Assembly (NCBI RefSeq): GCF_001548275.1
Contig: NZ_AP014945.1
Span: forward strand, 900,001-932,000
Length of the DNA: 32,000 nucleotides
Source of the DNA: Caldimicrobium thiodismutans
Lineage (GTDB): Bacteria; Desulfobacterota; Thermodesulfobacteria; Thermodesulfobacteriales; Thermodesulfobacteriaceae
Direction of reading: 5' to 3'
Shown here: positions 12,834 to 28,125 of the stretch, one piece after another
Position numbering within the stretch: position 1 is the stretch's first letter
How the letters are laid out: each line of letters opens with the position of its first letter
The notes under the pieces: model-generated
Database searches by the model: none
The model's input: the letters and a program-made list of their open reading frames with translations, nothing else
What the model was told of the DNA's origin: nothing
Program-made: the position numbers and the translations under genes

Positions 12834-14216
12834 TTACACACCTCCCCCTTGGAGAAACTTTATGAGCCAGGAAAGATAGAAAGTTAAGAAAATCACAATA
12901 AGAAAAATTAGAACACTGAAAAAGGTGTAGGAAGGAGAAAGATCTTTTAATGTTTTACTTCCAGGACCTTCTTTTTTTATAAAAATTAACCTGTAAAAAA
13001 CAATAGCTTTATATATTAAATTTACCGCTATTCCAAGGCTTAATAGAAAACCAAAAAGCAGGGAAAATTTGAATACAAAGCTTAACATGGCAAATTCAAG
13101 ATAAAAATATCCAAAAAGGGGGAACCCAGAAAGAACGAGAAGAAAGGTAGTAAAAAAGAAGGTAAAAATTGGCTTAGTAAGAGTAAGAGCTCCATACTCA
13201 TCAATAAAGAGATTACCTGAGGTCCTCTCCATATGATAAACATAGATAAAGAGGGCAAAGGCAAGAAATCCATGAAAAAGACCAAAGGGAACAATAAGAA
13301 AAGGAGAAACATAAGGAAGCATAGCTAAAGATCCTGCAAGCATAACATTAAGATGGCTCATACTCATATAAGTGAAAATCTTTTTAATATCTCTATTTGA
13401 CCAAGCAATATAACCCGCATAAAGTGCTGAAAAGATAGTTAAAAAAAGAAAGATCTCTAAAGATAGAGAAGCCTTTTGGTAAAATCTGTAAAATCCATAA
13501 AGAGCATACTTACTCAAAATACCTGAAAAAATTGCCGTAACAGGGCTTGGAAGATTATAGTAAGTATTCAGAAGCCACCCATGAAGGGGAAAGACAGGAG
13601 TTTTTACCATGATGCCTATGTAGAGAAGACTCGCTATCCATTTGGCCTCATAAAGACCACCAAGCTTAAATTCAAAGGATTGGTTGTATTTGTAAAGAAA
13701 AAGTATTCCCAGTAATAAAAAGATACTAAAACCAAAATTATAAATCAAAAATTCCAGAGCTATTCTTTTTGGGCTTTCTTTGGAAAAATACCAGAGAAGT
13801 AAAGTTGCAGGAATTAACATGGCCTCCCAGAAGATAAAAAAGGTTAAAGTATCTCCAGAAAGAAAAAAAAGATTATTTACACAGAAAAGCATAAGCATAA
13901 GTCCATTAAAAAGATGGCCCTTAAACTCAGATTGCACAAAAAAATATAAAAAAAGATAAAGAAGTAAATTTAGCCAGAGAAAAACTAAGGAGGCCTGATC
14001 AAGTCGGAATTTAAGAAGAAAGCCAAAATCTTTAAAATAAATATATTCTAAAAAAGTGCCCCTCAGGGCAGAGAGGATGTCAGGGATTATCAAAAGAGTC
14101 ATAAAAACTATAAAAATCCTTGTAAACCAGAGGTAATCCCTTTCCTTATCTTTCAGGATGAAGAAAGAAAAAAGAAATCCCAAGAGAGATAAAAGAATAA
14201 ACTCTTTAAACATCAT
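12834..14216 (-). CDS. nuoM: Complex I-like antiporter-like subunit M
   Basis: 460-aa polytopic membrane protein of the NuoL/M/N-MrpA/D superfamily (FWEAMLIP, HGWL, YMSMSHLN). It directly abuts nuoN. Divergent, and very F/L-rich. Confidence 0.7.
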   Translation of the reverse strand: MMFKEFILLSLLGFLFSFFILKDKERDYLWFTRIFIVFMTLLIIPDILSALRGTFLEYIYFKDFGFLLKFRLDQASLVFLWLNLLLYLFLYFFVQSEFKGHLFNGLMLMLFCVNNLFFLSGDTLTFFIFWEAMLIPATLLLWYFSKESPKRIALEFLIYNFGFSIFLLLGILFLYKYNQSFEFKLGGLYEAKWIASLLYIGIMVKTPVFPLHGWLLNTYYNLPSPVTAIFSGILSKYALYGFYRFYQKASLSLEIFLFLTIFSALYAGYIAWSNRDIKKIFTYMSMSHLNVMLAGSLAMLPYVSPFLIVPFGLFHGFLAFALFIYVYHMERTSGNLFIDEYGALTLTKPIFTFFFTTFLLVLSGFPLFGYFYLEFAMLSFVFKFSLLFGFLLSLGIAVNLIYKAIVFYRLIFIKKEGPGSKTLKDLSPSYTFFSVLIFLIVIFLTFYLSWLIKFLQGGGV

Positions 14217-14228
14217 AGCCCATACCCC

Positions 14229-15989
14229 TCAAGAACTAATTAGGCCTAAAAGATAAAAGAAAATAATGGCTAAAACAAAGATCTGGATATACTTAATAAG
14301 GTTTCCATCAAAGATACGGGCCTTTTTTTGGGAAAAGATATAAATACTTTCTGGAAGAGAGCGATTTAGACTAAAAAGAAGCCCGTCATTAAAGGCACAT
14401 AAAAGATTCCTTATGGCAACCAAAAACCTATCCACAAGAGGCTTATAAAATTCTCCTACATATTTATATTCTATGGGTTCTAAAATTCTATGCAGGCCTC
14501 TGTAAATCTGCTTCCCAAGGGTTATGTAAAACCAATCCGTATCAAGATTAATCTTTGGTTTGGGAGCAATATATGAGCGAACAGCAAAAAATACCAGTGC
14601 CACACAGGAAAAGAGAGAAATTACTCCTATGGTATGTTGATAGGTATAGGGCTCATAATGAATTGGATAGGGTAAAAACTGATAGTAAATTCCAGGGAAA
14701 ATCCCAATAAGAATACATAAAAGAGAGGCAATAATCATGGCAAGATGCATATTCCAGGGAAGGGGCTTTATTTCATAAGATCCTTCTTTTCCGAAAAAGA
14801 TATAATAACCCATTTTAAGGACAATGCTGAAGAAGGTTCCTATGGAGGCAAGTTCCATAAGGATATATTCAAAGGGGCGATGAATAAGGGTGGAAGCGTA
14901 AATGGTAATACCCTTTGAGACAAAACCACTGGTTAGGGGAACTCCTGAGATAGAAAGGGCACCTACAAAGAAGTAGAGCGCTATCCAGGGATTCTTCTTA
15001 GCAAAGCCACCAAGGAGATGGATTCTCTCAAGGCCAGTTGCAAAAATGACTGCACCTGCAGACATAAAAAGAAGGCCTTTATATATAATGTGGGCAAAGG
15101 CATGGGCTGAGGCCCCATTTAATGCCAAAGTGCTTCCAAGCCCTGCTCCGCACACCATAAAACCAACCTGACTGATAATATGATAGGAAAGAAGCCTTCT
15201 TGGATTATTTTCAAGGGTTGCGTAAACAACTCCATAAAAAGCCATAATGGCTCCAGCAATAGCCAATATATATTCCCCTGGAAACACCCTTACCAGTGCA
15301 TAAACCGCACTCTTGGTGGTAAAGGCACTAAGAAAGACAGAACCATAAATAGTTGAATTGGGATAGGCATCAGGAAGCCAGGCATTTAAAGGTGGAACCG
15401 CAGCATTAATCACAAAGGCAAAAAGAATTAAAAAATAGGGTAAAGAATAACTTAGAGAACGGAGATTCTCTACAGTAGTTATTCCTTGGTAATACCAGAG
15501 AAATAATATTCCAAGAAGCAAAGACAAACCACTTACCGCATGAACAAGTATATATCTTATAGAGGAAAAATAGGCTTCACGGGTTCTTGCAGAAATAACA
15601 AGAAGAACAGCAAAAACTGCAAGCCCTTCCCAGAAAAGATAATAAGATAACCAATCATAGGCAAAGGCAACTCCTACAGCACAGGCCATGTAAAGAAGAC
15701 CTGCACTTATCTGCAGACGATCTTCCACATGTAAGGCATACAGCAGCCCTATAAAACCAATGAGACTGAATACATAAGCAAAAAAAAGTGAAAGTTTATC
15801 AACTTTTATAAGAAATTCATAATCAAGGATTTTGAAGCCACCATAAATTCCTGGATCAAGCTGGGTAATTATAAAGAAGGTTAAAAGGGCAGTGAAAAGG
15901 GCAAGATAATTCAGACTCTTCCGATAAAAAAAGTAAATAAAAGGGCCAATCAAAAGGGCCAAAAGATTAGGAGGTATAATATCTATCAT
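14229..15989 (-). CDS. Complex I-like subunit L-type antiporter-like protein with C-terminal lateral-helix-like extension
   Basis: Superfamily motifs are present (FWEGLAV, NAWLPDAYP, SYHIISQVGFM). After the antiporter core there is a roughly 110-aa tail: a long charged/amphipathic stretch (DWFYITLGKQIYRGLHRILEPIEYKYVGEFYKPLVDRFLVAIRNLL...) ending in a final TM (IQIFVLAIIFFYLLGLISS). This is the NuoL/MrpA layout. I place the start at the ATG at 15989 (MIDIIPP...), preceded by AAGAAGGAGGAAGACT. The track ORF extends to 16025. Confidence 0.7.
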   Translation of the reverse strand: MIDIIPPNLLALLIGPFIYFFYRKSLNYLALFTALLTFFIITQLDPGIYGGFKILDYEFLIKVDKLSLFFAYVFSLIGFIGLLYALHVEDRLQISAGLLYMACAVGVAFAYDWLSYYLFWEGLAVFAVLLVISARTREAYFSSIRYILVHAVSGLSLLLGILFLWYYQGITTVENLRSLSYSLPYFLILFAFVINAAVPPLNAWLPDAYPNSTIYGSVFLSAFTTKSAVYALVRVFPGEYILAIAGAIMAFYGVVYATLENNPRRLLSYHIISQVGFMVCGAGLGSTLALNGASAHAFAHIIYKGLLFMSAGAVIFATGLERIHLLGGFAKKNPWIALYFFVGALSISGVPLTSGFVSKGITIYASTLIHRPFEYILMELASIGTFFSIVLKMGYYIFFGKEGSYEIKPLPWNMHLAMIIASLLCILIGIFPGIYYQFLPYPIHYEPYTYQHTIGVISLFSCVALVFFAVRSYIAPKPKINLDTDWFYITLGKQIYRGLHRILEPIEYKYVGEFYKPLVDRFLVAIRNLLCAFNDGLLFSLNRSLPESIYIFSQKKARIFDGNLIKYIQIFVLAIIFFYLLGLISS

Positions 15990-16224
15990 AGTCTTCCTCC
16001 TTCTTTGAAACCAGAAGCCCAACAATCTTTACCACTATAAAGAGAAAAAGCGCCCCAAGGATTCCAAAAATTCCCTCAAAAAAGGGAATTTTTTCAAAGG
16101 CAAAATGCTTTTCTTCGTGAAAATAAAATTCTCCCACCATTGAAAGCAAAAAGGCTATAACTACCACTATTAGAGCCTTGAGAAAATTAGGTTTGTCAAT
16201 TTTACCCCACATAGAGCACCTCAA
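15967..16224 (-). CDS. Small two-TM membrane protein, unknown function, embedded between two antiporter-like subunits
   Basis: 85-aa ORF (alternative ATG at 16212) with two hydrophobic helices (ALIVVVIAFLLSMVG and IFGILGALFLFIVVKIVGLLV) and a charged tail. It overlaps both neighbours, consistent with translational coupling. No family recognised. Confidence 0.5.
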   Translation of the reverse strand: MRCSMWGKIDKPNFLKALIVVVIAFLLSMVGEFYFHEEKHFAFEKIPFFEGIFGILGALFLFIVVKIVGLLVSKKEEDYDRYYTS

Positions 16225-17704
16225 TGAGTTTTAGAAGTTGATAGAGCACATCAATTTTTAACGCAAGAATTAGGGTTAAAAGGGCTGTTATAAAAAGGGG
16301 AATGGCACAGAAGTAATTTTCAACCACTTTTTCATAGGGAGTGTAATGGTGGATATCCTTAGGTTGATAGGGTTCTTTAAGAAGAGCCCTGAAAACAATA
16401 GGAAGAAAATAGGCCGCATTTAAAAAGGAACTTAAAAGAAACACCAAAGCCCCAAGAAAAAGACCTGCTTCAAGAGATCCAGAAATAAGGTAAAATTTAC
16501 TCCAGAATCCTATAAATCCAGGAACCCCAACTATACTCAGACTGGCAAGGAAAAAGGCAGTAAAAGTAAGGGGCATCTTCCTTGCAAGACCATTCAATTG
16601 AGGAATCTCAGTGTAATGGGTTGAGACATAGACCGAGCCTGCTGAGAAAAAGAGAGTTATTTTTGAAAAGGCATGGGCAGTAATATGAAGGATACCTCCT
16701 ATTACAGATAAAGGATGAAAAAGGGCTGTTCCAAAAACAATATAGGAAAGCTGGCTTACTGTTGAAAAGGCAAGCCTTGCTTTAAAGTTCTGGCGAGTTA
16801 AGGCAATGGCTGAAGCAATAAGTATGGTAGCAGCGGTAATAAAAAGAATAAATTCCTGTAATCCAAGAGCAAGGATACCCTCCTTTCCAAAGATATTTAA
16901 GAGAACCCTCACATTGGAAAAGGCTCCTGTTTTTACTACGGCAACAGCATGAAGAAGGGCTGAAACAGGAGTTGGAGCAACCATGGCAGAAGGAAGCCAG
17001 CTGTGAAGGGGCATAATAGCACACTTGTTATAGCCATAAAGAAATAAAATAAGAGCTATCTGTAAAGCAAGTTTATGCCCTGTTAACATCTCCTGAGTAA
17101 AGATTCCCTTTTCTGCGTAATCAAGGGTTCCGGAGACATAATAAGTTATTGCCATAGCTGGAATTAAGAAAAGTTTTGCAGTTCCAAGAAGGTAAATTAC
17201 ATATTTTCTTGCTCCCTCAAGGGACTCTTCATCTTCCTTATGTGCCACAAGGGGATAGGTGATAATAGACATAAGCTCATAAAAGAGGAAAAGGGTGAGA
17301 AGATTTCCGGAAAAGGCAACTCCCATGGTGGCTGTAAGGGAAAGGGCAAAGGCTACAAAATAACGGGTCTGCCTTATAGCATGAGTTCCTCTCATATAAC
17401 CTATGGAATAAAAAGTAGTTAAAATCCAAAGAAAGGAGGCCCCAAGAGCAAAAAGGACTCCTAAGGGATCAATAAGAAGTTTTATGGAGATACCCTCATA
17501 GATTTTAAGAATTTCAATGGTATAACTTTTCTTTTCAAGAACAATGGGGACAAGGGCAAGCACAAATAAAAATTTCAAAATCCCTGCAATAACAGAGACT
17601 GCCTCTCTATGATTAGGTCTTTTTTCTCCAAAATAAATGATTAAGGGAACTGCAAGGGCTGAAACAAGAATGGCTCCAATAGGAAAAAAAACCTCACTCT
17701 TCAT
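16202..17704 (-). CDS. Additional antiporter-like subunit (MrpD/NuoM-like) without a lateral-helix tail
   Basis: 500 aa with LFLFYELMSI, HSWLPSAMVAPTPVSALLHA and LAFSTVSQLSYIVF, the core motifs of the NuoL/M/N-MrpA/D superfamily. It sits between nuoK and the L-type gene and overlaps the nuoK 3' end by 11 nt. Confidence 0.75.
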   Translation of the reverse strand: MKSEVFFPIGAILVSALAVPLIIYFGEKRPNHREAVSVIAGILKFLFVLALVPIVLEKKSYTIEILKIYEGISIKLLIDPLGVLFALGASFLWILTTFYSIGYMRGTHAIRQTRYFVAFALSLTATMGVAFSGNLLTLFLFYELMSIITYPLVAHKEDEESLEGARKYVIYLLGTAKLFLIPAMAITYYVSGTLDYAEKGIFTQEMLTGHKLALQIALILFLYGYNKCAIMPLHSWLPSAMVAPTPVSALLHAVAVVKTGAFSNVRVLLNIFGKEGILALGLQEFILFITAATILIASAIALTRQNFKARLAFSTVSQLSYIVFGTALFHPLSVIGGILHITAHAFSKITLFFSAGSVYVSTHYTEIPQLNGLARKMPLTFTAFFLASLSIVGVPGFIGFWSKFYLISGSLEAGLFLGALVFLLSSFLNAAYFLPIVFRALLKEPYQPKDIHHYTPYEKVVENYFCAIPLFITALLTLILALKIDVLYQLLKLIEVLYVG

Positions 17705-18026
17705 CCTTTTCCCCTAATAGCGTTAATTTTTCCATAGAGAGAGTCTTTGTAAGCCGATAATAATTGACCACAAGAATTAAACCTATGGCAAAAGAACCTG
17801 CTGCAATGGCAAGGGTTAAAAGAACAATCATTTTTCCCTTTGGATCTCCGAAATAATGACTTGCTGTAACAAAAAGAAGGTTTATTCCATTAAATACTAC
17901 TTCAAGGGCAAGAATGGCAACAAGTAAATTTCTTTTGAGAATAAATAACCCTATTCCAAGAAAAATAAGAAGTCCTGAAATTACATAAAAGGGATATTCT
18001 GAGGCAAAGACTCTAAGAATCTCCAC
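17694..18026 (-). CDS. nuoK: Complex I-like subunit K
   Basis: Three-TM small protein with LALEVVFNGINLLFV and the AIAAGSFAIGLILVV pattern typical of NuoK/ND4L. I favour the GTG at 18026, preceded by AAGGAGGAAGAAA. The track ORF starts at 18062. Confidence 0.85.
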   Translation of the reverse strand: MEILRVFASEYPFYVISGLLIFLGIGLFILKRNLLVAILALEVVFNGINLLFVTASHYFGDPKGKMIVLLTLAIAAGSFAIGLILVVNYYRLTKTLSMEKLTLLGEKDEE

Positions 18027-18525
18027 TTTCTTCCTCCTTTTTAAAAAAGACATAAAGGGCAACCATGGGAAAACTTAAAATAAAGGCAAGAAGAAAAATC
18101 GCCATCCAATACTCATTAAAGAGAAGAACACTCATTTCCTTCAAATCAAAATAAATTTTGAGAGGAGAATAACTTTCTGGAATTCCCTTTACCAGAACCA
18201 AAAAGAGCAAACAAATAAAAATAGCTATGGGCAAAAAGGAAGTGTATTTTATCCTTTTAAAATCCCCTTTAAGGTCTTTTAATTCCTCTTCAGGGAAAAG
18301 AAAGAGAGTAAAAAGAAACATAACAAGAATTGCCCCTGCATAAACTATCACCTGAATAGCTGCCAGAAATTCAGCATTGAGATAAAGATAAAGAACTCCA
18401 TGAAGAACCATAAGAACAAGGATACACAAAAACTGATACACAAGATGTCTGAAAAAAAAGGTAAAAAAAGTAAAAATAAAGAAAAGACCTGTTAAGATTA
18501 AAAGAGCAATTCCTCTTTCTATCAT
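18013..18525 (-). CDS. nuoJ: Complex I-like subunit J
   Basis: FLAAIQVIVYAGAILVMFLF is the NuoJ/ND6 signature. The ATG at 18525 overlaps the nuoH stop as ATGA. The track ORF uses an upstream GTG at 18540. Confidence 0.8.
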   Translation of the reverse strand: MIERGIALLILTGLFFIFTFFTFFFRHLVYQFLCILVLMVLHGVLYLYLNAEFLAAIQVIVYAGAILVMFLFTLFLFPEEELKDLKGDFKRIKYTSFLPIAIFICLLFLVLVKGIPESYSPLKIYFDLKEMSVLLFNEYWMAIFLLAFILSFPMVALYVFFKKEEESGDS

Positions 18526-19541
18526 CTTAGCATACCCCACTTAAGTATGGCTATCCAGATAAAATTTATCAGGGAAAGAGGTATTAAAACTTTCCAGCTC
18601 ATATTCATAAGCTGGTCAAATCGATATCTGGGAAAAGTAGCCCTAACCCATATATAAAGGAAAATAATGAAATAGACCTTTACAATCAGAATAAGTATTG
18701 GCGGGATACCCTTTAAAAAGGGAAGAAGCCCTGTTAACCAGAAAGGAAGGGTCCACCCACCCAAATAACAAAGACTTATTAAAAGGGCCATAACATACAT
18801 AGAGATGTATTCCCCAAGAAAAAAGATTCCCATTCTAAAACCCGAATATTCTGTGATATATCCAGCAACAAGCTCACTTTCTGCCTCAGGAAGATCAAAG
18901 GGGGCTCTATTGGTTTCAGCAAAAGCACAAATTAGAAACACTATAAAACCGAGAAGCTGGGGAATAGCATTCATTCCAAAAAGGGAACTGGCCTGAGATG
19001 CTACAATGTCCTGAAGTTTAAAAGATTCTGCATAGAGAATAACCCCTGCAAGACTTAAACCCAGAGGTATTTCATAACTTAAAATCTGGGCTGCAGATCG
19101 TAAGCCTCCAAGAAGGGAATATCTTGAACCTGAGGAGTATCCTGCAAGGATTATTCCATAAGTCCCAAGGCCAGCAAAGGCAAGAATTACAAGCACACCT
19201 AAATTTACATCCGCAATATAAAAGGAAGGATGAAAGGGAATAACACTTAAATTGGTAATGGCAAAAATAAGAACCAAAAGGGGAGCCACCTGAAAGATAA
19301 CTCTATGTGCTTCCCGAGGAATAATATCTTCTTTAAAGAGAAGTTTCACAAGATCCGCTATGGGCTGCAAAAGTCCATAGGGACCTACTTCCGTAGGTCC
19401 AAGACGAGCCTGCATCCTACCTATTATCTTTCTCTCAGCATAAACAGTGTAAGCTGCATGAAGCAAGACTATCCCTAAGACTACTGCGATCTTCACCAGA
19501 GTGATCAAAAGGGTCCAAAAAAGCCCCTCATTTAATCCCAT
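18522..19541 (-). CDS. nuoH: Complex I-like subunit H
   Basis: AERKIIGRMQARLGPTEVGPYGLLQPIADLVKLLFKEDIIP, AETNRAPFDLPEAESELVAGY and EYSG are the canonical NuoH/ND1 motifs. Confidence 0.95.
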   Translation of the reverse strand: MGLNEGLFWTLLITLVKIAVVLGIVLLHAAYTVYAERKIIGRMQARLGPTEVGPYGLLQPIADLVKLLFKEDIIPREAHRVIFQVAPLLVLIFAITNLSVIPFHPSFYIADVNLGVLVILAFAGLGTYGIILAGYSSGSRYSLLGGLRSAAQILSYEIPLGLSLAGVILYAESFKLQDIVASQASSLFGMNAIPQLLGFIVFLICAFAETNRAPFDLPEAESELVAGYITEYSGFRMGIFFLGEYISMYVMALLISLCYLGGWTLPFWLTGLLPFLKGIPPILILIVKVYFIIFLYIWVRATFPRYRFDQLMNMSWKVLIPLSLINFIWIAILKWGMLR

Positions 19542-20058
19542 ATTCCTCTAACCTCTTCTTCAATTCTTTAAGCTTTATAAAATCTTCAGGTTTTTCTTCT
19601 GGCTCAAGGGGATAGTCCTTTCTAAGGGGATGCCCTTTCCAGTTCTCTGGAAGAAGTATTCTTTTAAGATTGGGATGCCCCTTAAAGATAATTCCAAAAA
19701 GATCAAAAACTTCCCTTTCAAGAAAATTTGCCCCTGGAAATAAATCTGTAATACTTTCAAGGGAGAGATCCTCTTCAGGAACCTGAACCCTCAATCTTAA
19801 GGCTATACGCTCATTTAGATTGTAAAGCTCATAAACCACTTCAAAACGGGGATTTTTTCTAAGATTGATATAATCAACAGCAGTTAGGGTTTGCAAGTGA
19901 TTAAAACCTTTATCTTTCAGGAATCTTATAAGATCCTTGAGAATCTCCCTGGATCTAATAATTAAATAGGTTTGACCTCTAAATTCTCCCCTTTCCCAGA
20001 GGGCTTCTCTAAAGGTTTCTTCAATTTCTTTAAGAATTTCTGAAAGTTTATCTTTCAT
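19528..20058 (-). CDS. nuoC: Complex I-like subunit C (30-kDa subunit)
   Basis: 176 aa with FEVVYELYNL..RLRV, PGANFLEREVFDLFGI.F.GHP and LRKDYPL, the NuoC signature. Confidence 0.9.
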   Translation of the reverse strand: MKDKLSEILKEIEETFREALWERGEFRGQTYLIIRSREILKDLIRFLKDKGFNHLQTLTAVDYINLRKNPRFEVVYELYNLNERIALRLRVQVPEEDLSLESITDLFPGANFLEREVFDLFGIIFKGHPNLKRILLPENWKGHPLRKDYPLEPEEKPEDFIKLKELKKRLEEYGIK

Positions 20059-20441
20059 AAGCCTTTCTGCCAGTCAAGAAGCCCTTTCTTTAAATCATAA
20101 AAGAAGCCAGCAAAAATAATAATCAAAAAAAGAAGCATAATTGAGAAACCAGAAAAACTTAGCTCCGAAAAACCATAACACCAGGCATAAAGCAAACCCA
20201 CTTCTACATCAAAAACTGCAAAAAGAATGGCTATAGGAAAGTATCTAATGGTTATTCTCTGCCAGGGAAGACCAGTTGGCTCATTTCCACATTCATAGGG
20301 AATAAGCTTGAGAGAATAATAAAATTTAGGTCTTACAAGGGCTCCAAAAATAAGTCCACCCATACCAAAAATAAAAGCAACAATTAGCATAACCAAAATA
20401 GGGAGATAACCTGAGGGAATAAAGTAATCCGGCCTTTCCAT
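20055..20441 (-). CDS. nuoA: Complex I-like subunit A
   Basis: 128 aa, three TM, with YECGNEP and FDVEVGLLY motifs typical of NuoA/ND3. Confidence 0.9.
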   Translation of the reverse strand: MERPDYFIPSGYLPILVMLIVAFIFGMGGLIFGALVRPKFYYSLKLIPYECGNEPTGLPWQRITIRYFPIAILFAVFDVEVGLLYAWCYGFSELSFSGFSIMLLFLIIIFAGFFYDLKKGLLDWQKGL

Positions 20442-20444
20442 TTC

Positions 20445-20999
20445 TTAATCCCTCACCTTTATCAGAATTCCTTCTCTTTTTGGAGCAGGTTTTAAAATCT
20501 CAGGTATTCCTTTAAGGTTCCAGAATTTATTGGTATATACCTTTTCAGGATATTTCTCTATAAATTCATCCCAGTTTTTAAGAAGCCTTTCTTTATCAAA
20601 GATAAGCCCTGCTCTATCCCTTGAAGAATATTCAAACCATTCGGTTAAAACTATAGCTCCAACAGGACAAACCTCTTCACAATACCCACAATAAATGCAT
20701 CTTAAAGCATGGAGATTATATTCAAGCATTTTTCTTGCCCCAGTCTCAGGGTCTACTTCATACCTCACCTCAATACATCTTGAAGGGCATACCTGAACAC
20801 ACTTCAAACAGGCCACACATCTTGCAGTTCCTGTTTCAGGATCCCTCACCAAAGCATGTCTTCCTCTAAAGGAGGGATATACCGTTACTCTTTCTCTTGG
20901 ATACTGAACAGTTACAGGTTTTTTAAAAAAGGTCTTAAGGGTAATTAAAAGCCCACCAAGGAGATCTTTAAAGATAAGATATTTAGGATCCCTTCTCAT
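20445..20999 (-). CDS. nuoI: Complex I-like subunit I (2x[4Fe-4S])
   Basis: Two ferredoxin motifs, CVACLKCVQVCP and CIYCGYCEEVCP, in a NuoI-like context (YPRE...FRG.HAL). Confidence 0.92.
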   Translation of the reverse strand: MRRDPKYLIFKDLLGGLLITLKTFFKKPVTVQYPRERVTVYPSFRGRHALVRDPETGTARCVACLKCVQVCPSRCIEVRYEVDPETGARKMLEYNLHALRCIYCGYCEEVCPVGAIVLTEWFEYSSRDRAGLIFDKERLLKNWDEFIEKYPEKVYTNKFWNLKGIPEILKPAPKREGILIKVRD

Positions 21000-22225
21000 C
21001 TATCGCACTCTCCCATAACAATATCAAGAGTTCCTATTATAGTTACCAAATCAGCAAGAAAATGATCTTGAGTTAATTTTTTTAGAGCAGAAATGTGAAT
21101 AAAAGATGGGGCTCTTATGTGAAGTCTATATGGTCTTCCTGATCCATCACTCACAAGATAAAAGCCAAGCTCCCCCTTTGCCCCTTCAACAGCAGAGTAA
21201 AGTTCTCCTTTGGGAACAATTTCACCTCCCTCATTCAAAAAGGCAATAAGGGTGCTTTCTCCCAAGGCTTCTGCTTTAAAAGCCCTCTTGTAAAGGGGCA
21301 TATCAAGATCAGGGGAAAGTTCTGCACAAACAGGTCCTTCCGGCATCTTTTCAATACACTGTTTGATAATTTTTAAAGATTGCCTCATCTCTTGAAGCCT
21401 CACCCAGTATCTATCATAGGTATCTCCATTTTTACCCACAGGAATTTCAAATTCCACCTCGGGATAGGCATCATAGGGAAAATGCTTTCTTATATCATAG
21501 GGGATGCCAGAACCTCTAAGGGAGGGGCCGGTCAAACCATAAGCCAAAGCCTCATCCCCTGAAATAACACCCACTCCTTTGGTTCTATCAAGCCAGATTC
21601 TATTTTCCGAGAGAAGCCCTTCATATTCCTCAATCTTTGAATACATATAAGGAATAAAGTTATAAATTTCCTCAAGCACTGATTCCTCCACATCCAGTCT
21701 AACTCCACCAATTCTTGGATAGCTAACTGTAAGCCTTGCTCCGCAGATTTTTTCAAAGAAATTGAGAGTCATCTCCCTTTCACGGAAACAATAAAGAAAA
21801 ACAGTCATAGCTCCGATATCTAAAGCATGGGTTGCAAGCCAAAGAAGATGGCTGGCAATTCTTGCAAGTTCACAAACCATGGTGCGCAGATATTTTCCCC
21901 GTGGTGGAGGCTCAATTCCGAGAAGTCTTTCTACTGCAAGGGCATATCCCGTATTATTGTTCATGGCAGAGATATAATCTAATCTGTCTGTAAGAGGTAA
22001 AACCTGGGCATAATTCAGATTTTCAGCAAGTTTCTCAAGACCCCGATGAAGAAAACCTACAACTGGTTCAAGATCAACGATCTTTTCTCCTTCAAGAACA
22101 AGCCTTAATTTCAGCACCCCGTGTGTTGAAGGGTGCTGAGGCCCCATTTGAATTTCAAAGGGAGAGAAAAAGGGATCTTCAACAGAATAGGTAAGCTCTT
22201 TATAAGCTGAGTTCTTTTCTCGCAT
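20996..22225 (-). CDS. nuoD: Complex I-like subunit D (49-kDa, quinone-site type rather than [NiFe] type)
   Basis: [24 protein letters not shown] and C-terminal [10 protein letters not shown]. The CxxC pairs that ligate Ni-Fe in the homologous hydrogenase large subunits are absent. Confidence 0.95.
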
Positions 22226-22676
22226 AAGGGCCCCAGGTTCTTTTCTCCTCGCGAAGCATTTTTCTCAATTCAAGAAGGCCTTCAATCAGGGCTTCAGGCC
22301 TTGGTGGGCATCCAGGCACATAAATATCTACAGGAACTATCTCATCAACTCCCTGAACGGTAGAATAAGTTCTAAATACTCCTCCTGAACAGGCACAGCT
22401 TCCCATGGCAACCACCCATCTGGGATGACTCATCTGGTCATACACCCTTCTTAAAATGGGAGCCATCTTATAGGTGACAGTTCCAGCAACAATTAAGCAA
22501 TCGGACTGTCGGGGAGAGGCTCTAAAGATTATTCCAAACCTGTCAAGATCATTTCGTGCAGCACCAGAGGCCATCATCTCAATAGCACAACAGGCAAGCC
22601 CAAAGGTAACAGGCCAGAGAGACCCTGCCCTTGCCCAGTTTATTAAGTCATCAAGTTTACCAAGAAAAAGCTCCAT
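22200..22676 (-). CDS. nuoB: Complex I-like subunit B (N2 cluster)
   Basis: [24 protein letters not shown] and [12 protein letters not shown] place the start at the ATG at 22676 ([10 protein letters not shown]...), preceded by AAGGAGAAAATT. The track ORF's 43-aa N-terminal extension would overlap the upstream ferredoxin gene and shows no NuoB-like sequence. Confidence 0.93.
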
Positions 22677-22696
22677 AATTTTCTCCTTGATTTCTT

Positions 22697-23215
22697 CTAC
22701 CAGAGAAGGGCTTTTAGATTTTCTACAATTTTTTGAGCATATTGCTCCCTTGTCTTTCTTGTAGCTTCCTCGGGAAGAACAAAGGAAAGACAAGAAGTTG
22801 TGCATCCCTCAACACAGGCAGGCTTCTCGCCTCTATCAAGGCGATGCATACAGAGATGACACTTAAAAACCTTTCCTGTTTCAGGATTCCACTGGGGAAT
22901 CCCCCAGGGACAGGCCTTCATACAGGACTTACACCCAATACAAAGCTCATCCCTCACATAGACAATTCCATCTTTTTCCCTTCTTGTCATTGCTCCTGTT
23001 GGGCAAGCCCTCACACAAAAGGCATCCTCACAGTGAAAACAATTCATATAAACAAAATAAATTCTTGGAATCCCATTTACATCCTTTGGTCCAACAGGTA
23101 GAATATCACAAAACCTTGGACCAATTGGCAAATTATTCTCAACCTTACAATGAACCACACAGGCAAGGCAACCAATACATTTTCTTTGGTTCTGAGTTAT
23201 CACATATTCGCTCAT
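22697..23215 (-). CDS. 4x[4Fe-4S] ferredoxin-like electron-transfer subunit (PsrB/DmsB/HycB class, short form)
   Basis: 172 aa with four Cys groups: [37 protein letters not shown] and [18 protein letters not shown]. No signal peptide and no TM segment. Confidence 0.9.
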
Positions 23216-23229
23216 CTTTACCCTCCAGG

Positions 23230-25311
23230 CTAAATTTTATTAATTTTCACAAAGGTTTCAAAAAGAGGACAATTTCCACCTACAGTAACTTTAAGCTTCT
23301 CTTTCATCAGACGCACATCACTTGCACCCCTTCCAAAAGACCGGGTTCTAACTGGAACAGGATCTCCAAAGCCATGCAGCATAAAAGCCACCTCAGGATG
23401 AACATAAGGTGAAACCCTAACTCTTATCTTTTCAGAGACTCCATTTGAAGAGACCTCAACGAGATCCCCATCTTTCACTCCAAATTTTTTGGAAGCCTCA
23501 GGATGAATGTAAAGGTGATTTTCTGGATAAATTTCATTTAGATAAGGATTATTACTTGTGGTTCTTCCTTGGGTATGAAGGGCCACCTTTCCACTAACAA
23601 GCCTGAGCATACCCTCTGGAGGTGACTCTGGCCTTTCATAAGGAGCAAGAGAGGGAACTCCTGCCTTTTCCAAAAACTCCGAATAGGCCTCAATTTTACC
23701 TGAAGGGGTATTGAATTTAAGATTATTTCTGTCATACCAGATGGGATCCTTGGTTAAATCAATGATCCCTTTTTTACTAAAATCTTCAAAGGTAAAGCCT
23801 GTTCCTTCAAGCTGCCAGTTAACCATTTCAATTTCATCTTTCCAAGGAAAATATTCACCCTTACCAAGTCTTTCTGCCAGAGCTTTAAAAATTTGAAATC
23901 TACTTTTTGCGTCAAATCTGGGTTCAATTACCTTCTGTCTTAAAGCAAGCTGTGGTTTTAGCCCCTTTCTAACCAAAATATTATCTGTTCTCTCAAGATA
24001 GGTAGCCTCTGGTAAGATCACATCGGCATACCAGGCAGTCCAGCTCCAGTTCACATCAATGGCAACCACTAAATCAAGTTTATCAAAGGCCTTAATCCAG
24101 ACCTCAGGATCTGGCATAGAGGCAAGGGGATCGTGCCTCATAGCAATATAGGCCTTTACTGGATAGGGCTCACCAGTTTCAATTACTTCTGGTAAAACCT
24201 GAAGCATCCCCCACTGAGCCCTTATCCATGGATACTTGATTCCTGCTCCATCACAGCGCTCTTCAGTAACCTTAGGGGCAATAGAAGTTGGTTGTTTGAT
24301 TTTAACTCCTGCATCTCCTGCTCCCTTAGAAATTACAATTCCACCCTTGGCCTCATAACTTCCCATAAGGGCATTGAGAATATATATAGCCCTTCTAAAA
24401 TGGAAATCCTGAGAATTCCATGCGGTCATCCATCCTGGATGAAAAATCACTGAAGGCTTAGCATCAGCTGCCTCATAAGCAATCTTTCTTATCTCCTCAG
24501 CTGGAATTCCAGTCTCCTTTTCAGCCCATTCAGGAGTATAAGGCTGAATGAAGCTTCTCAAGTAGTCAAGACCAACTACATATTTATTTACAAAATCTGC
24601 ATCATAAAGATGCTGATTCAAAATAACATTTATTAAAGCTAAAGCCAAGGCATAATCCGTTCCAGGATTAATAATAAAAAACTTATAAGCCTTTGATGCA
24701 GTATAGTTCCAGCGCACATCAATATAAACCATCTTTCCGCCTGAATTTATCATCTCTATAACATTTCTTGCCTCTCCTGTAATCAGACTTTCAAGGAGAT
24801 TTCTTCCAAAGACAACCATATATTTACAGTTTTTATAATCATATCCCACGGTGTTTCTGGCATGCCCTGCCACACTCATATGGGCATTATGCACAGAGTT
24901 GGAACAGGTAGCATGATGGGTAAAATAGTTAGGAGATCCTATAGATCTAAGAAAGAGTTTTTGAAGCTCTGTATGAGGCCCTCCTCTATCACTTAAAGCA
25001 ATAGCCTTAGCTCCATAATTTTCTATAATAGTTTTTAATTTATCTGCAATAAAATCCAAGGCCTCATCCCAAGAGACCCTTCTCCATTTACCAGAACCTC
25101 TTTCTCCATCCCTTATCATAGGATACTGAGGTCTTTCATTGTCGTATTCAAAGGCAACTCCTGCTGCACCTCTGGGACAAAGACTTTTTGCCCCGAATAC
25201 ATGGGGATTTCCCCAGATGTGTTTTATAACTCCCCCCTCAACTTCAACCATTATGGGGCATCTCCCCGTGCACATGCAACAAAGACTATAAACCACTTTC
25301 TTTTCAGTCAT
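23230..25311 (-). CDS. Molybdopterin (bis-MGD) oxidoreductase catalytic subunit, MopB superfamily (Psr/Phs/Ttr-like), no Tat signal
   Basis: 693 aa. The N-terminal FS0 motif is C-x2-C-x3-C...C (SLCCMCTGRCP...GNPHVFGAKSLCPRG). A candidate Mo-ligand Cys lies in THHATCSNS. MGD-binding-like segments follow, and the C-terminus has a barrel region (LYIHPEASKKFGVKDGDLVEVSS). The N-terminus MTEKKVVYSL has no RR motif or hydrophobic leader. There is no in-frame TGA. Confidence 0.9.
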   Translation of the reverse strand: MTEKKVVYSLCCMCTGRCPIMVEVEGGVIKHIWGNPHVFGAKSLCPRGAAGVAFEYDNERPQYPMIRDGERGSGKWRRVSWDEALDFIADKLKTIIENYGAKAIALSDRGGPHTELQKLFLRSIGSPNYFTHHATCSNSVHNAHMSVAGHARNTVGYDYKNCKYMVVFGRNLLESLITGEARNVIEMINSGGKMVYIDVRWNYTASKAYKFFIINPGTDYALALALINVILNQHLYDADFVNKYVVGLDYLRSFIQPYTPEWAEKETGIPAEEIRKIAYEAADAKPSVIFHPGWMTAWNSQDFHFRRAIYILNALMGSYEAKGGIVISKGAGDAGVKIKQPTSIAPKVTEERCDGAGIKYPWIRAQWGMLQVLPEVIETGEPYPVKAYIAMRHDPLASMPDPEVWIKAFDKLDLVVAIDVNWSWTAWYADVILPEATYLERTDNILVRKGLKPQLALRQKVIEPRFDAKSRFQIFKALAERLGKGEYFPWKDEIEMVNWQLEGTGFTFEDFSKKGIIDLTKDPIWYDRNNLKFNTPSGKIEAYSEFLEKAGVPSLAPYERPESPPEGMLRLVSGKVALHTQGRTTSNNPYLNEIYPENHLYIHPEASKKFGVKDGDLVEVSSNGVSEKIRVRVSPYVHPEVAFMLHGFGDPVPVRTRSFGRGASDVRLMKEKLKVTVGGNCPLFETFVKINKI

Positions 25312-25330: not shown

Positions 25331-26152
25331 TTATTTCACAATTAAAACTGGCCTGTCAGTTTTGCTGACTACATCTTCAGCTACACTTCCAAAAATTATT
25401 TTTTGCATGCCCTTTAACCCTCTATTTCCCATAACAATAAAATCGAGATCCTTTTGTTTGGCTATTTCAAGAATTAACTGGGAAGGGCTTCCTCTATACA
25501 AAAGAGATTCTGAAGAAACCCCCTCTTTGAGGGTAAACTTTTTAGCTTCATCTAAGACCTTTTTAGCTTTATCTTCTCCAAATTTATCAGTGATAACAGA
25601 GAGAAGATAAAGAGTTAATTCCAGTTTCTTAGAAAACTTAGTGGCAAATTCTAAAGCTTTGAGAGAGACCTCTGAACCATCTACTGCACAGAGAATACCT
25701 TGTCCTCTAATTTCACTTGTCCGGGGACATATTAATACGGGACATTTCACCTTGGGTATAACTCCAAGAGTTGCACTTCCTATGAAATGTTTAGCAAGAC
25801 CTCGTATACCCCTTCGACCCATTACAATTAAATCTGCCTGAATCTTCTCAGCTGATTCTGCAATGCCAGCTTCAATGCTTTCACTCATAGGAAATAAACC
25901 CTCAACAGATATTCCTTCCTTAGAAGCCTGCTCTTTCAATCTATCTAAAATAGCTCTTGCCTTACTTAGCATAGTCTCAGTATCTCTTGGAACCATGGTG
26001 AAATGTTCAGGATTATAGTAAATTACATGACACACATAAAAAGTCTTGACTCCACATTTCTTACTTAAATACAAAGCTATCCTCTCTGCCCCACTTGAAT
26101 ATTCTGATCCATCTGTTGACACCAAAATTTTGCATAGAGTAAGTTCTCCCAT
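25331..26152 (-). CDS. Tandem universal stress protein (2x UspA domain)
   Basis: 273 aa. Two Usp domains, each with the ATP-binding-type motif G-x2-G-x9-G(S/T): MGRRGIRGLAKHFIGSAT and MGNRGLKGMQKIIFGSVA. It is the first gene of the minus-strand block, 19 nt upstream of the Mo-enzyme gene. Confidence 0.9.
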   Translation of the reverse strand: MGELTLCKILVSTDGSEYSSGAERIALYLSKKCGVKTFYVCHVIYYNPEHFTMVPRDTETMLSKARAILDRLKEQASKEGISVEGLFPMSESIEAGIAESAEKIQADLIVMGRRGIRGLAKHFIGSATLGVIPKVKCPVLICPRTSEIRGQGILCAVDGSEVSLKALEFATKFSKKLELTLYLLSVITDKFGEDKAKKVLDEAKKFTLKEGVSSESLLYRGSPSQLILEIAKQKDLDFIVMGNRGLKGMQKIIFGSVAEDVVSKTDRPVLIVK

Positions 26153-26186: not shown

Positions 26187-26202
26187 CTCAAAAGACATGC
26201 CA
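26187..26202 (-). promoter_or_regulatory. Weak candidate sigma-54 (-24/-12) promoter for the minus-strand operon
   Basis: The minus strand reads TGGCATG-TCTT-TTGAG against the consensus TGGCACG-N4-TTGCW. The -24 element and spacing are good, but the -12 element has GA instead of the near-invariant GC. It lies about 36 nt upstream of the usp ATG, with GGAGGAGG as SD. Confidence 0.3.
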
Positions 26203-26274
26203 AAAAAAGGAATAGACCTACATCTCAGATTTTCTTATATTTTGGAAACTTCTAAGATTTCTTTTAATCCCTAT

Positions 26275-26312
26275 TGTGCCTTTTGGCACACCTAAGTGTT
26301 CCATTTGGAACA
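26275..26312. promoter_or_regulatory. Two 16-bp perfect palindromes of TGT-N10-ACA type (candidate enhancer/UAS for a sigma-54 activator)
   Basis: TGTGCCTTTTGGCACA (26275-26290) and TGTTCCATTTGGAACA (26297-26312). Centres are 22 bp apart, about two helical turns. Both fit the TGT-N10-ACA layout known for NifA-type EBP sites. They lie between the two divergent candidate sigma-54 promoters. Confidence 0.5.
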
Positions 26313-26351
26313 GTTTTTTTCTCAGATTTTTAAAAATTCTTTGATTTATTC

Positions 26352-26367
26352 GGGCATAATTTTTGCT
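26352..26367 (+). promoter_or_regulatory. Sigma-54 (-24/-12) promoter for the 26410 gene
   Basis: GGGCAT-AATT-TTTGCT: GG at 26353-26354 and GC at 26365-26366, with the canonical 11-nt G-to-G spacing and an exact TTGCT -12 element. It lies about 43 nt upstream of the ATG at 26410 and is followed by the AGGAGGTG SD. Confidence 0.6.
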
Positions 26368-26409: not shown

Positions 26410-27720
26410 ATGAGTAAGGGTTTTAAGTGGTTTCTTTGGGTTTTTGTTCCCCTTTTACTTGTAGTAGCCAGTTATTCCTGGCTTTTGAGTGAGGAGAAAA
26501 AGGCTTCTGAAGGTGCAAAGGCCTCTGCTGTGACAGAGGCCCCTCAAGCTCCTTCTCAAGAGCCGCAGAAGGTTGAAATTGCTCTTGACAAACAGACCTA
26601 CCGGGGAGGAGACACCATTAAGATTACTGGAAAGATTCCAGCTGGAATGAAGGTAAACTTCATTGAAATTTCCGCTGTTGAGAAAAAAGTTCAGGTATCT
26701 CGCTTAGACCGAAAGGACTATAAATTCTATCTTTCAAAAGAAATTCCAGCTTTTTATCATATTTTGATCAGAGAAGATTATGTTGCAAAGATTGACAAGA
26801 ACGGGACGGTGGAAGAAAAACCTGTAAAAGAGGTTTATACCAAATGGAAACAGGAAAAAAAATGGAGAATTGGTGAATTTATGAAGGAAAGCAATGCGGA
26901 TATGGCTTTTATTACACCTCCTAAAATAGTATCTGAAATCAAAGTTTGGAAGTCAACAGTTACCAAAGCCATTATTGGATCAAGAGGAGAGCCTCTTCCT
27001 CCTCTTACAGACAAAAAGGACATTAAAAAGGAATCTGCCCGTCTTCTTCAGACCAGAATGAAAGATTTAAGCAATCTCTTTAGTTTAGCTAAGATTGAGA
27101 CTAAAGAGGATGGCACCTTTGAGGCTACTTTTAAGCTTCCTGATAATGCCCCTCCAGGTGCTTATTCAGTAATTGCAGTAGTTAACAAAGAGGTAAAGAG
27201 TGATCCAGCAAAATTTACTTGTGAGGTTAGTTTCCCCAAGGTTTACTTTCCTGTAGCTGGGACTTCAACCAATGTTTTTGGTCCCCTTATTCTTTCCCTT
27301 GCTATCTGCACCTTTGGTGTAATTATGGGAGCAGGGGGTGGATTTATCTTGAATCCCCTTTTGATCCTTATCTATCATATACCCCATGGAGTGGTAGCAG
27401 GTTCTGTTATGCCTACAGTTCTTTTTAGCCAAGCTACAGGTATTTATAATTACAGCAAAATTGGGTTTATTAACTGGAAACTGGGAATTACAGTAGGTAT
27501 TTTTATGGCCCTCGGTGGATTCTTTGGACCACTTTTAAACCAGTTTGTTACTGTTGATGAATATAAATTTGTTTTTGGAATAGTTCTTCTCATCCTTGCA
27601 GCCCTTATGTTATGGCAGACAACTCCTGGTTACATTGAAAAGTCAAAGAAAGAAAAGGCCATTCTTGAAGAATTTAAGAAAAAGGCAGCTGCAGCCAAGG
27701 CTGGAAAAGAACAAAAATAA
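26410..27720 (+). CDS. Fusion protein: signal-anchor + ~270-aa extracytoplasmic domain of unknown family + 4-TM half of a TSUP/TauE-SafE-type permease
   Basis: N-terminal TM FLWVFVPLLLVVASYSWLL. The soluble region has beta-sandwich-like strings (YRGGDTIKITGKIP, EDGTFEATFKLPDNAPPGAYSVIAVV). About four TM helices then begin with the TSUP signature GAGGGFILNPLL. The tail is Lys/Ala-rich. Confidence 0.8.
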   Translation: MSKGFKWFLWVFVPLLLVVASYSWLLSEEKKASEGAKASAVTEAPQAPSQEPQKVEIALDKQTYRGGDTIKITGKIPAGMKVNFIEISAVEKKVQVSRLDRKDYKFYLSKEIPAFYHILIREDYVAKIDKNGTVEEKPVKEVYTKWKQEKKWRIGEFMKESNADMAFITPPKIVSEIKVWKSTVTKAIIGSRGEPLPPLTDKKDIKKESARLLQTRMKDLSNLFSLAKIETKEDGTFEATFKLPDNAPPGAYSVIAVVNKEVKSDPAKFTCEVSFPKVYFPVAGTSTNVFGPLILSLAICTFGVIMGAGGGFILNPLLILIYHIPHGVVAGSVMPTVLFSQATGIYNYSKIGFINWKLGITVGIFMALGGFFGPLLNQFVTVDEYKFVFGIVLLILAALMLWQTTPGYIEKSKKEKAILEEFKKKAAAAKAGKEQK

Positions 27721-27732
27721 GGAGGTGAGATC

Positions 27733-28125
27733 ATGAAAATAGATTTCTGGGGTCAAGAGTTTAAGGCAAATATGGTGGTGGGTGCCATTGGTGGCTTTAT
27801 TATAGCAGTGGCCTCAAGTTTAGGTGGTTTTGGTGGTGGTCCCTTTGTAGTTCCTCTTATGACTGTTATTATGGGTCTTCCTATTTATGTGGTTGTTGGA
27901 AGCTCCCTTCTTGCCATCTTTTTCAACACTCTTATGGCCTCATCAAGATACTACTTTTTTGGACAAACGGATGTGCTCCTTTTTATTATTATGGCCATTG
28001 GTGCAGTTTCTGCGGGTTTCATCGGTCCGAGAATTGCTAAAAGACTTAGTCCCATCTGGGTAAAAAGAGTAGCTGTGGTTGGTTGTGGTTATCTTGGTTT
28101 AAAACTTCTTGGCATACTTCCATAA
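27733..28125 (+). CDS. Second 4-TM half of a split TSUP/TauE-SafE-type permease
   Basis: 130 aa with four hydrophobic helices and the TSUP signature GGFGGGPFVVPLM. It starts 12 nt after the previous gene and has a GGAGGTGAG SD. Confidence 0.8.
   Translation: MKIDFWGQEFKANMVVGAIGGFIIAVASSLGGFGGGPFVVPLMTVIMGLPIYVVVGSSLLAIFFNTLMASSRYYFFGQTDVLLFIIMAIGAVSAGFIGPRIAKRLSPIWVKRVAVVGCGYLGLKLLGILP

Follow-up and report, generated by a model that had tools for sequence, protein, structure and literature searches.

A leaderless Psr/Phs-like molybdoenzyme pair encoded at the head of a NuoEFG-less complex I operon in Caldimicrobium thiodismutans

The pair and its operon

A 32,000-nucleotide stretch of the Caldimicrobium thiodismutans genome (RefSeq contig NZ_AP014945.1, positions 900,001 to 932,000; hereafter referred to as the window, on which all coordinates are based) encodes a molybdoenzyme and its iron-sulfur (FeS) partner immediately upstream from the genes of a complex I. 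The gene for the catalytic subunit (25311..23230, minus strand) begins with ATG and encodes a leaderless Psr/Phs-like protein of 693 amino acids (aa) containing a molybdenum/tungsten bis-pyranopterin guanine dinucleotide (Mo/W-bisPGD) cofactor site, hereafter referred to as the MopB protein. The FeS electron-transfer subunit (23215..22697, minus strand, ATG start, 172 aa) is ferredoxin-like, of the Fer4_11 type. On the minus strand, the genes follow each other without interruption in the order usp, MopB, FeS, NuoB-D-I-A-C-H-J-K, MrpD-like, an open reading frame (ORF) of 85 codons, a second MrpD-like gene, NuoM and NuoN, with families assigned by Pfam and NCBIfam and with gaps of 14 to 20 nt at the head of the operon. 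Apart from the MopB and FeS subunits, this Nuo operon encodes no additional redox protein. The first gene of the transcript is probably usp (25331..26152, minus strand), which encodes a universal stress protein with tandem domains (Usp, matched in two stretches) and is separated from the MopB gene by 19 nt; a usp gene occupies the same position in the Caldimicrobium loci L008, L011, L013 and L056. Scans for terminators and promoters inside the operon gave counts at chance level and were uninformative, and the Rfam and tRNA scans of the window returned nothing. Three ORFs of 96 to 142 aa on the plus strand (22474..22764, 22733..23101 and 22984..23412) lie antisense to the FeS and MopB genes; they resemble ORFs arising by chance in antisense sequence of low G+C content.

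The MopB protein starts with MTEKKVVYSLCCMCTGRCP, and the cysteines of its FS0 cluster are residues 11, 14, 18 and 45, such that 10 residues precede the first of them. In an alignment, plasmid-borne PhsA of E. coli has 47 residues at this place, including SRRNFLRG. The ATG at 25311 is preceded, 7 nt upstream, by the ribosome-binding site AAGGAGG, and an in-frame TGA 27 nt 5' of the ATG makes an N-terminal extension impossible. Homologues from several phyla are 691 to 705 aa long and span query residues 1-693. No real twin-arginine translocation (Tat) motif was found in these leaderless homologues, and the long N-termini of some extracted relatives are naive upstream extensions of the ORF, with no RRxFL followed by a hydrophobic region. 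A hidden Tat leader or a sequencing error was rejected on the basis of the in-frame TGA, the strong Shine-Dalgarno sequence and the leaderless state of all these relatives. There is likewise no ORF for an NrfD/PsrC-like or PhsC-like membrane anchor in the window, and no anchor C subunit follows the pair in any of 83 related loci surveyed by tblastn with the window proteins. The enzyme therefore works in the cytoplasm. An earlier note, made from the sequence of this stretch, had described the pair as anchor-less, with no room for a twin-arginine leader and no possibility of extending the ORF upstream, and all three statements hold.

The complex I genes, all on the minus strand, encode the 11-subunit core NuoABCDHIJKLMN, with the cysteine motifs of clusters N2 and N6a/b, the quinone-site His and Tyr, and NuoL in the form of two MrpD-like proteins. 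NuoB (22200..22676) matches NuoB profiles from ORF residue 42-46 onwards and its translation contains the N2 motifs CC..C..C. Its true start is probably the ATG at 22676, which lies 20 nt after the FeS stop codon and is preceded by GGAG, the listed start at 22805 probably being an ORF-calling extension that overlaps the FeS gene. NuoD (20996..22225) scored above the equivalog cut-off and retains the quinone-site His (PSTHG) and Tyr (RLDY). Against PDB sequences it scored 433 bits with the 49-kDa subunit of complex I, versus 223 with MBS, 160 with MBH and 127 with HycE, which identifies a Q-module of the quinone type. NuoI (20445..20999) matched NuoI profiles and has two [4Fe-4S] sites, and the cluster motifs of both NuoB and NuoI are present. 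NuoA (20055..20441), NuoC (19528..20058), NuoH (18522..19541), NuoJ (18013..18540) and NuoK (17694..18062) were assigned from the ORF list, the order shared with the Thermodesulfobium locus L001 (Pfam) and tblastn synteny. The two MrpD-like antiporter subunits, of 500 aa (16202..17704) and 598 aa (14229..16025), carry Proton_antipo_M and matched PRK08375 and PRK12668 (above the cut-off); they stand in for NuoL, giving four antiporter-like subunits together with NuoM (12834..14216; NDH_I_M profile) and NuoN (11388..12833; NDH_I_N profile), with which the operon ends. The 85-aa ORF between the MrpD-like genes (15967..16224) has two predicted membrane helices and no Pfam match, and its product may be an additional small subunit in complexes I of this kind. 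At the equivalent place, Thermodesulfobium L001 has ORFs of 50 and 81 aa (19397-19817).

No gene for NuoE, NuoF or NuoG was found in the window with the ORF list, Pfam or NCBIfam. In this respect, and in the presence of two MrpD-like genes between NuoK and NuoM and hence of four antiporter-like subunits, the operon resembles the “green complex I” of Chadwick et al. (2018), in which two MrpD-like subunits replace NuoL, as related in PMC9040806. The extra subunit is proposed there to allow 5 rather than 4 H+ to be moved per 2 e- and to play a role in reverse electron transport; relative to the complex as described there, the window adds a molybdoenzyme pair at the head of the operon.

Catalytic and iron-sulfur subunits

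The MopB protein belongs to the Psr/Phs branch of the Mo/W-bisPGD superfamily (the dimethyl sulfoxide reductase or MopB superfamily). Three Pfam domains were matched above their cut-offs (Molybdop_Fe4S4 at residues 5-56, Molybdopterin at 62-481 and Molydop_binding at 569-659). The top NCBIfam profile was PhsA, at 543 bits, with a match beginning at profile position 40, past the leader; the next family, Fdh-alpha, reached 243 bits (cut-off 666), NasC 155 bits and NuoG 46 bits. The closest solved sequence is that of T. thermophilus PsrA (2VPW_A), with an alignment that starts at chain residue 36 and has an E value of 1.7e-112. The same chain was the best Foldseek match (TM score 0.89, 34% identity) of an AlphaFold2 model of the protein (pLDDT 83.8, pTM 0.87), followed by acetylene hydratase and ArrA, and identity to PhsA was 35%. 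In the alignment with characterised members of the superfamily, Cys136, within HHATCSNS, falls on PsrA Cys173 and on the PhsA cysteine, the position of the Mo ligand, and C11, C14, C18, C45 and C136 do not vary among 18 relatives. Cys136 is directly followed by Ser137 and not by a histidine, so the U/C-His dyad of FdhH-type enzymes is absent. The earlier note had called the enzyme Psr/Phs-like, had seen a probable Cys ligand in this motif and had argued against a formate dehydrogenase, and the profile, alignment and structure searches all agree with it. Nor does the protein cluster with a well-known cytoplasmic clade, the FdhH and NasC profiles scoring far below PhsA. Formate dehydrogenase, assimilatory nitrate reductase and a NuoG-like domain without cofactor were rejected as identities on the basis of these profile scores and the Cys-Ser ligand motif.

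The active site was surveyed in an alignment of about 140 representatives, drawn from an exhaustive search that gave 13,384 relatives at E ≤ 1e-3. Arg109, which is invariant in the leaderless family, corresponds to PsrA His145 and to a Lys in PhsA. Arg109 and a GW[MFL] motif, the latter at the place of the basic pair Arg332/His333 of PsrA, are common to 11 leaderless representatives. Among 67 Tat-bearing relatives, by contrast, the Arg332/His333 position is occupied by a basic residue in 54, and GW[MFL] occurs in a single one. The basic pair of PsrA reportedly has a catalytic role (Jormakka et al. 2008). Given these differences from the Tat-bearing relatives, the protein can be placed in a distinct leaderless clade within the Psr/Phs branch, for which HHATCSNSVHNAH and DVRWNYT are family-specific motifs.

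This signature bears on the nature of the substrate. The enzyme might act on something other than a sulfur compound (arsenate, selenate, nitrate or an organic molecule), or might catalyse a non-redox reaction, as does acetylene hydratase. Sequence is a poor guide to substrate in this superfamily, acetylene hydratase and ArrA rank second among the solved relatives, and the combination of Arg109, CSNSVHNAH, RWNY and GWM is unlike that of any characterised enzyme. In acetylene hydratase, however, Asp13, which lies beside the second FS0 cysteine, activates water, and the residue aligned with it here is Thr15 (25% identity overall), a replacement that led us to reject an acetylene hydratase. The four-cluster subunit and the redox partners described below point to redox chemistry, the family is confined almost exclusively to sulfur-cycling anaerobes, a TauE-family gene adjoins the cluster, and thiosulfate induction has been seen in proteomes. 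A non-sulfur substrate is, on balance, improbable.

The FeS subunit has 16 cysteines in four groups (residues 13-23, 59-71, 92-102 and 119-138), corresponding to four [4Fe-4S] clusters of the PsrB/DmsB class, and its profile matches are of the DmsB/NrfC/TtrB type. Its best solved relative is PsrB (2VPW_B, 195 aa, E = 3e-28), with HycB (203 aa) at E = 1.5e-11. The earlier note had considered this subunit unusually short for its class and closer in size to HycB-type connector ferredoxins. It is indeed shorter than PsrB and PhsB, but a length of about 170 aa is usual in its own family; the comparison with HycB fails, because the subunit is shorter than PsrB and HycB alike, and PsrB is the better match. 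Residues specific to particular partners were sought as a sign of co-evolution and rejected as such: nothing could be separated from phylogeny, and all groups retain the C-terminal helix. In one relative, P0041 (847 aa), the catalytic subunit is naturally fused to a Fer4_11-type domain, which would fit a complex of the two subunits. Another, P0126 (921 aa), has a C-terminal extension of about 236 aa and may be a similar fusion.

Taken together, the pair has the catalytic fold, FS0 cluster, Cys Mo ligand and four-cluster B subunit of PsrABC (2VPW-2VPZ) and PhsABC. It differs from these enzymes in having neither a Tat leader nor PsrC/PhsC, in the length of the B subunit (about 20 aa shorter), in the presence of Trp-Met at the Arg/His pair and of Arg109 at the position of PsrA His145, and in a score below the PhsA equivalog cut-off.

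Exchange of partners and possible function

The MopB protein is 99% identical to P0001 and 82-94% identical to proteins from Caldimicrobium metagenome-assembled genomes (MAGs); the genus consists, according to a published table, of thermophiles that disproportionate sulfur, sulfite and thiosulfate. Relatives with 52-67% identity occur in Nitrospirota (Thermodesulfovibrionales and Dissulfurispiraceae), Thermodesulfobium acidiphilum, Desulfomonilaceae, Syntrophaceae, Syntrophobacteraceae and Desulfobacterales. In total, 558 of 185,579 species genomes encode a relative. The description of a cytoplasmic, anchor-less enzyme as atypical for its family was therefore overstated in the earlier note, the leaderless clade being this widespread and already discussed in print.

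In all loci with sequence beyond MopB, the next gene is that of the FeS subunit, and what comes after it varies. In the first classification pass, 63 loci had enough downstream DNA, with 14 leading into the same Nuo chassis and 35 into a GltD-like Fe-S flavoprotein of about 650 aa (PRK12771 type). The second pass, for which a NuoF-like query was added and which gave slightly different partner counts, identified six loci with a NuoE-like and NuoF-like pair, the remainder having nothing obvious. The order MopB-FeS-NuoB-D-I-A-C-H-J-K-MrpD-(small ORFs)-MrpD-NuoM is identical in Thermodesulfobium acidiphilum (L001; 61% identity), which belongs to another phylum, and MopB-FeS-NuoBDIACHJK-MrpD-MrpD is also found in Nitrospirota (L023 and L066, 53-60% identical) and in all the Caldimicrobium loci, such that the pair-then-Nuo order spans three phyla. 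A neighbour-joining tree of the catalytic subunit places the Nuo-linked copies in at least four separate clades (Caldimicrobium; Thermodesulfobium; L023; L066/L070/L073) and the NuoEF-linked copies in four, both interleaved with GltD-linked copies. The MopB-FeS pair thus behaves like a cassette in need of a partner for electron transfer, one that has been exchanged repeatedly. AegA of E. coli is a natural fusion of an FeS-subunit-like and a GltD-like domain, which supports physical association in the GltD-linked case.

Several of the loci have particular features. In two Nitrospirota MAGs (L070, 9992-14374, and L073), only NuoD-NuoI follow the pair, and then the unrelated genes TPM and LemA; NuoB and the membrane subunits are absent behind the pair in both, which would make the arrangement a remnant or else a minimal soluble module. 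In L017 (12676-15350), L029 and L069, the pair is directly followed by a CBS protein, a NuoE-like protein and a NuoF-like protein of 592-658 aa with two extra 4Fe-4S motifs. In L002 (12661-14616), it is followed by a GltD-like Fe-S flavoprotein of 651 aa and then by a QueG/RDH-like Fe-S protein of 242 aa.

The arrangement in the window is not new: Frank et al. (2016; PMC5165239) reported the same linkage of a Psr-like pair with Nuo for Thermodesulfovibrio sp. N1 (THER_0567/0568), and the window locus is a further case, from Caldimicrobium, of an arrangement known from genomes. For Desulfolithobacter, Hashimoto et al. (2022; PMC9751629) list PhsA-1 (GF1_30490, 701 aa) and PhsB-1 (GF1_30500, 168 aa), and the locus tags of NuoA (30510), NuoB (30520) and NuoC (30530) run on consecutively from these; detection of NuoA and NuoB was limited to thiosulfate disproportionation. 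The portions of that Discussion drawn on here state only that Phs “lacked subunit C” and do not mention the nuo neighbours. In thiosulfate-disproportionating Dissulfuribacter, a Tat-less PhsAB-like pair (DITHS69_2028/2027) was among the most induced proteins, and the authors called for study of this enzyme and “its potential membrane association” (Fernandez et al. 2026; PMC13490349). All three pairs are, by description, like that of the window: leaderless, with no C subunit, and of about 700 and 168 aa. The Desulfolithobacter and N1 pairs also lie directly 5' of nuo genes without NuoEFG, the former with the canonical NuoA-B-C order in place of the B-D-I-A-C-H order and the two MrpD-like genes of the window. 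No biochemistry or structure of the pair or of its Nuo linkage is reported in the literature examined.

The pair is made together with a “green”-type complex I that has no NuoEFG, and would not be tethered by a quinol oxidase of the PsrC/PhsC type. It might nonetheless be a soluble enzyme that is merely co-transcribed with Nuo, with Nuo fed by ferredoxin or some other carrier, as has been suggested for further complexes without NuoEFG, and the molybdoenzyme served by a diffusible one. Consistent with such independence, 41 of the 63 informative loci link the pair to soluble modules or to nothing obvious, the FeS subunit shows no signature of its partner, NuoEFG-less complexes are widespread, with unknown donors, and the authors of the proteomic papers treat the PhsAB-like enzyme as soluble (PMC13490349). 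Where soluble partners exist, however, they are encoded immediately downstream, and here only Nuo follows, after a 20-nt gap. Moreover, at least four clades and two different nuo gene orders show the linkage, whether it arose there or was retained, NuoD-NuoI is the only part of Nuo present behind the pair in L070 and L073, and a four-cluster ferredoxin subunit without a partner would have no evident electron route. We consider a merely co-transcribed soluble enzyme rather unlikely in this operon. The earlier note had left the choice between a soluble function and docking on the adjacent Nuo module; docking is favoured here, given the pair-then-Nuo order in at least four clades and three phyla and in Desulfolithobacter, for which joint detection of the products has been reported, and the soluble alternative is real in the genomes with GltD-like or NuoEF-like partners.

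We put at about even the chances that the pair sits physically in place of the NADH-dehydrogenase module on a complex I with four pumps, forming a sulfur-oxyanion:menaquinone oxidoreductase coupled to the proton-motive force. By analogy with the HycB-HycF and Nqo3-Nqo9 contacts, the FeS subunit would dock on NuoI as a redox head, and electrons would pass between Mo, FS0, the four clusters of the 172-aa protein, N6a/N6b (NuoI), N2 (NuoB) and menaquinone. Formate hydrogenlyase (7Z0S/7Z0T) follows the same logic, with a leaderless MopB protein and a four-cluster connector leading to a NuoI homologue in a machine of the complex I type. It differs from the window system in having U/C-His rather than Cys-Ser and a [NiFe] hydrogenase rather than quinone-type NuoD/NuoB, and HycB is a weaker match to the FeS subunit than PsrB.

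The more specific proposal, that a cytoplasmic sulfur-compound reductase, most likely of thiosulfate, has taken the place of the N-module and is driven by reverse electron flow through complex I, is our leading but tentative one, for which we would give slightly less than even chances; docking, substrate and direction are all inferred. Menaquinol electrons, derived for example from sulfite oxidation via adenosine 5'-phosphosulfate (APS) reductase and Qmo, would be driven to lower potential by protons flowing in through the membrane arm, and thiosulfate, or a related compound with an S-S bond, would be converted to sulfite and sulfide inside the cell, with the TauE-type transporter moving an oxyanion in or out. 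The potentials of thiosulfate/(sulfite + sulfide) (-402 mV) and menaquinone (-74 mV), which make the reduction of thiosulfate with menaquinol endergonic, are given in PMC13490349, which also describes Salmonella PhsABC as driven by the proton-motive force. The gap is about 0.33 V per electron, or about 63 kJ per 2 e-, equivalent to about 4 H+ at 150-180 mV, and complex I running backwards, with 4-5 H+ per 2 e-, could supply it. This agrees with an older proposal, reportedly that of Krämer and Cypionka (1989), in which reverse electron transport is required for the disproportionation of thiosulfate. The versions linked to NAD(P)H would fit a reductase working near -320 mV at low product concentrations. 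Reduction of thiosulfate or another S-S compound was favoured because reverse complex I could supply the gap and the NAD(P)H-linked versions fit.

The same supercomplex might instead run forward, oxidising a low-potential sulfur donor, most plausibly sulfite to sulfate, in the cytoplasm and passing the electrons via NuoI and NuoB to menaquinone with the pumping of protons. The sulfate/sulfite couple lies at about -516 mV, as against -74 mV for menaquinone, and the extra pump subunit would suit so large a driving force. The enzyme is leaderless and faces the cytoplasm, its Q-module is of a complex I type competent in the forward direction, its active site departs from PsrA and PhsA at the basic pair, the adjacent transporter is of the “sulfite exporter” TauE family, NuoEF-like and GltD-like partners also serve NAD(P)+-reducing dehydrogenases, and the host genus disproportionates sulfite. 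The orientation is also that described for SoeAB on its NrfD anchor: in SoeABC, a leaderless MopB protein that faces the cytoplasm is combined with a B subunit of four clusters, and the substrate is a sulfur oxyanion. SoeC, though, is an NrfD-type anchor, and SoeA is much larger than the MopB protein of the window. The closest characterised relatives reduce S-S bonds, members of the family are often found in organisms that simply reduce sulfate or thiosulfate, such as Thermodesulfobium, Desulfomonile and Syntrophobacter, and the Dissulfuribacter PhsAB-like enzyme was increased under thiosulfate but not under sulfite/H2 (PMC13490349). Forward operation thus appears unlikely.

Several points weigh against a thiosulfate-reducing, molybdoenzyme-headed complex I. 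The MopB protein missed the PhsA equivalog cut-off (542.9 versus 694 bits). Where PsrA has Thr-Arg332-His333 and PhsA Gly-His-Arg, the leaderless family has, invariably, Gly293-Trp294-Met295, and this Trp294-Met295 suggests that the chemistry may differ from polysulfide or thiosulfate reduction. A membrane complex is not needed for the enzyme to function, the pair being mostly linked to soluble NAD(P)H modules, and no residues in the FeS subunit distinguish Nuo-linked from GltD-linked or NuoEF-linked copies. Binding of the pair to Nuo is proposed from gene order and analogy, and the kinship to the Dissulfuribacter and Desulfolithobacter pairs from published descriptions. A cost of 4-5 H+ per thiosulfate would be high for a disproportionating organism, and a five-proton pump would suit an exergonic forward reaction at least equally well.

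Sulfate reducers and sulfur disproportionators commonly have a complex I without NuoEFG, the electron partner of which is an acknowledged puzzle. This puzzle and that of the PhsAB-like enzyme are adjacent in one operon here and in relatives from three phyla. If the pair does dock on NuoI, the result would be a new class of respiratory machine, a complex I headed by a molybdoenzyme, and the electron partner of at least one class of the NuoEFG-less complexes of anaerobes would have been named. Evolution would have re-plugged one catalytic cassette between NuoEF, GltD-type and complex I chassis, and low-potential thiosulfate/sulfite chemistry would be coupled to the proton gradient, which bears on how life is sustained by the very small yield of disproportionation. 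In the reverse direction, such a machine would provide the long-postulated energy-driven step enabling disproportionators and sulfate reducers to reduce thiosulfate with electrons at the level of menaquinol; in the forward direction, it would be a proton-pumping sulfite dehydrogenase conserving energy for disproportionators. The swapping of partners among Nuo, NuoEF-like and GltD-like modules provides a clear comparative framework, and, together with the TauE and regulatory associations and the distinct active-site signature, it is what the present analysis adds, sharpening the hypothesis. Thermophilic hosts that can be cultivated include Caldimicrobium thiodismutans, Thermodesulfovibrio and Thermodesulfobium.

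Transporter neighbour, control region and possible sensors

A TauE/SafE-family transporter gene adjoins the MopB-FeS pair in 53 of 78 loci. In the window, this anion transporter is encoded on the plus strand, divergently from usp and MopB, by two ORFs. The first (26410..27720) encodes an N-terminal domain of about 290 aa, with a weak MG2-like match, and the first half of PF01925 (profile positions 3-114), and the second (27733..28125) encodes the second half (124-237). The split is not a frameshift, as it is shared by loci of Caldimicrobium and Nitrospirota.

The putative control region shared by usp and tauE (26187..26367), delimited by inspection and pattern scan, contains two palindromes in the intergenic space, TGTTCCAAATGGAACA (26312..26297) and TGTGCCAAAAGGCACA (26290..26275), and, on either side of them, two sigma-54-like -24/-12 elements, TGGCATGTCTTTTGAG (26202..26187), directed towards usp/MopB, and GGGCATAATTTTTGCT (26352..26367), directed towards tauE. 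The palindrome TGTYCC-N4-GGRACA recurs 5' of the cluster in all Caldimicrobium loci and in the Nitrospirota loci L017, L020, L063, L064 and L073, and probably constitutes the site of an enhancer-binding protein. A search with the strict sigma-54 consensus gave 16 matches versus 11 expected, which is not significant alone, and only the conserved palindromes add weight to the elements.

Further away on the plus strand lie genes for a hybrid histidine kinase (4061-6601), with a periplasmic PhnD-like (PF12974) oxyanion-binding domain, and a sigma-54 activator (10053-11426). Between them lies dnaE (6622-10056), the stop codon of which overlaps the start of the activator gene. The periplasmic domain of the kinase gave only weak matches of the PhnD/PtxB/ArrX/AioX type, from which no ligand can be named. 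The combination of a sigma-54 activator and a PhnD-like kinase suggests induction by an external oxyanion, and the kinase, the activator and PF12974 proteins are possible sensors for the inducer of the operon. In L002, a kinase and a sigma-54 activator are encoded directly upstream from tauE-MopB, and in L070 a stand-alone PF12974 protein is encoded between tauE and MopB.

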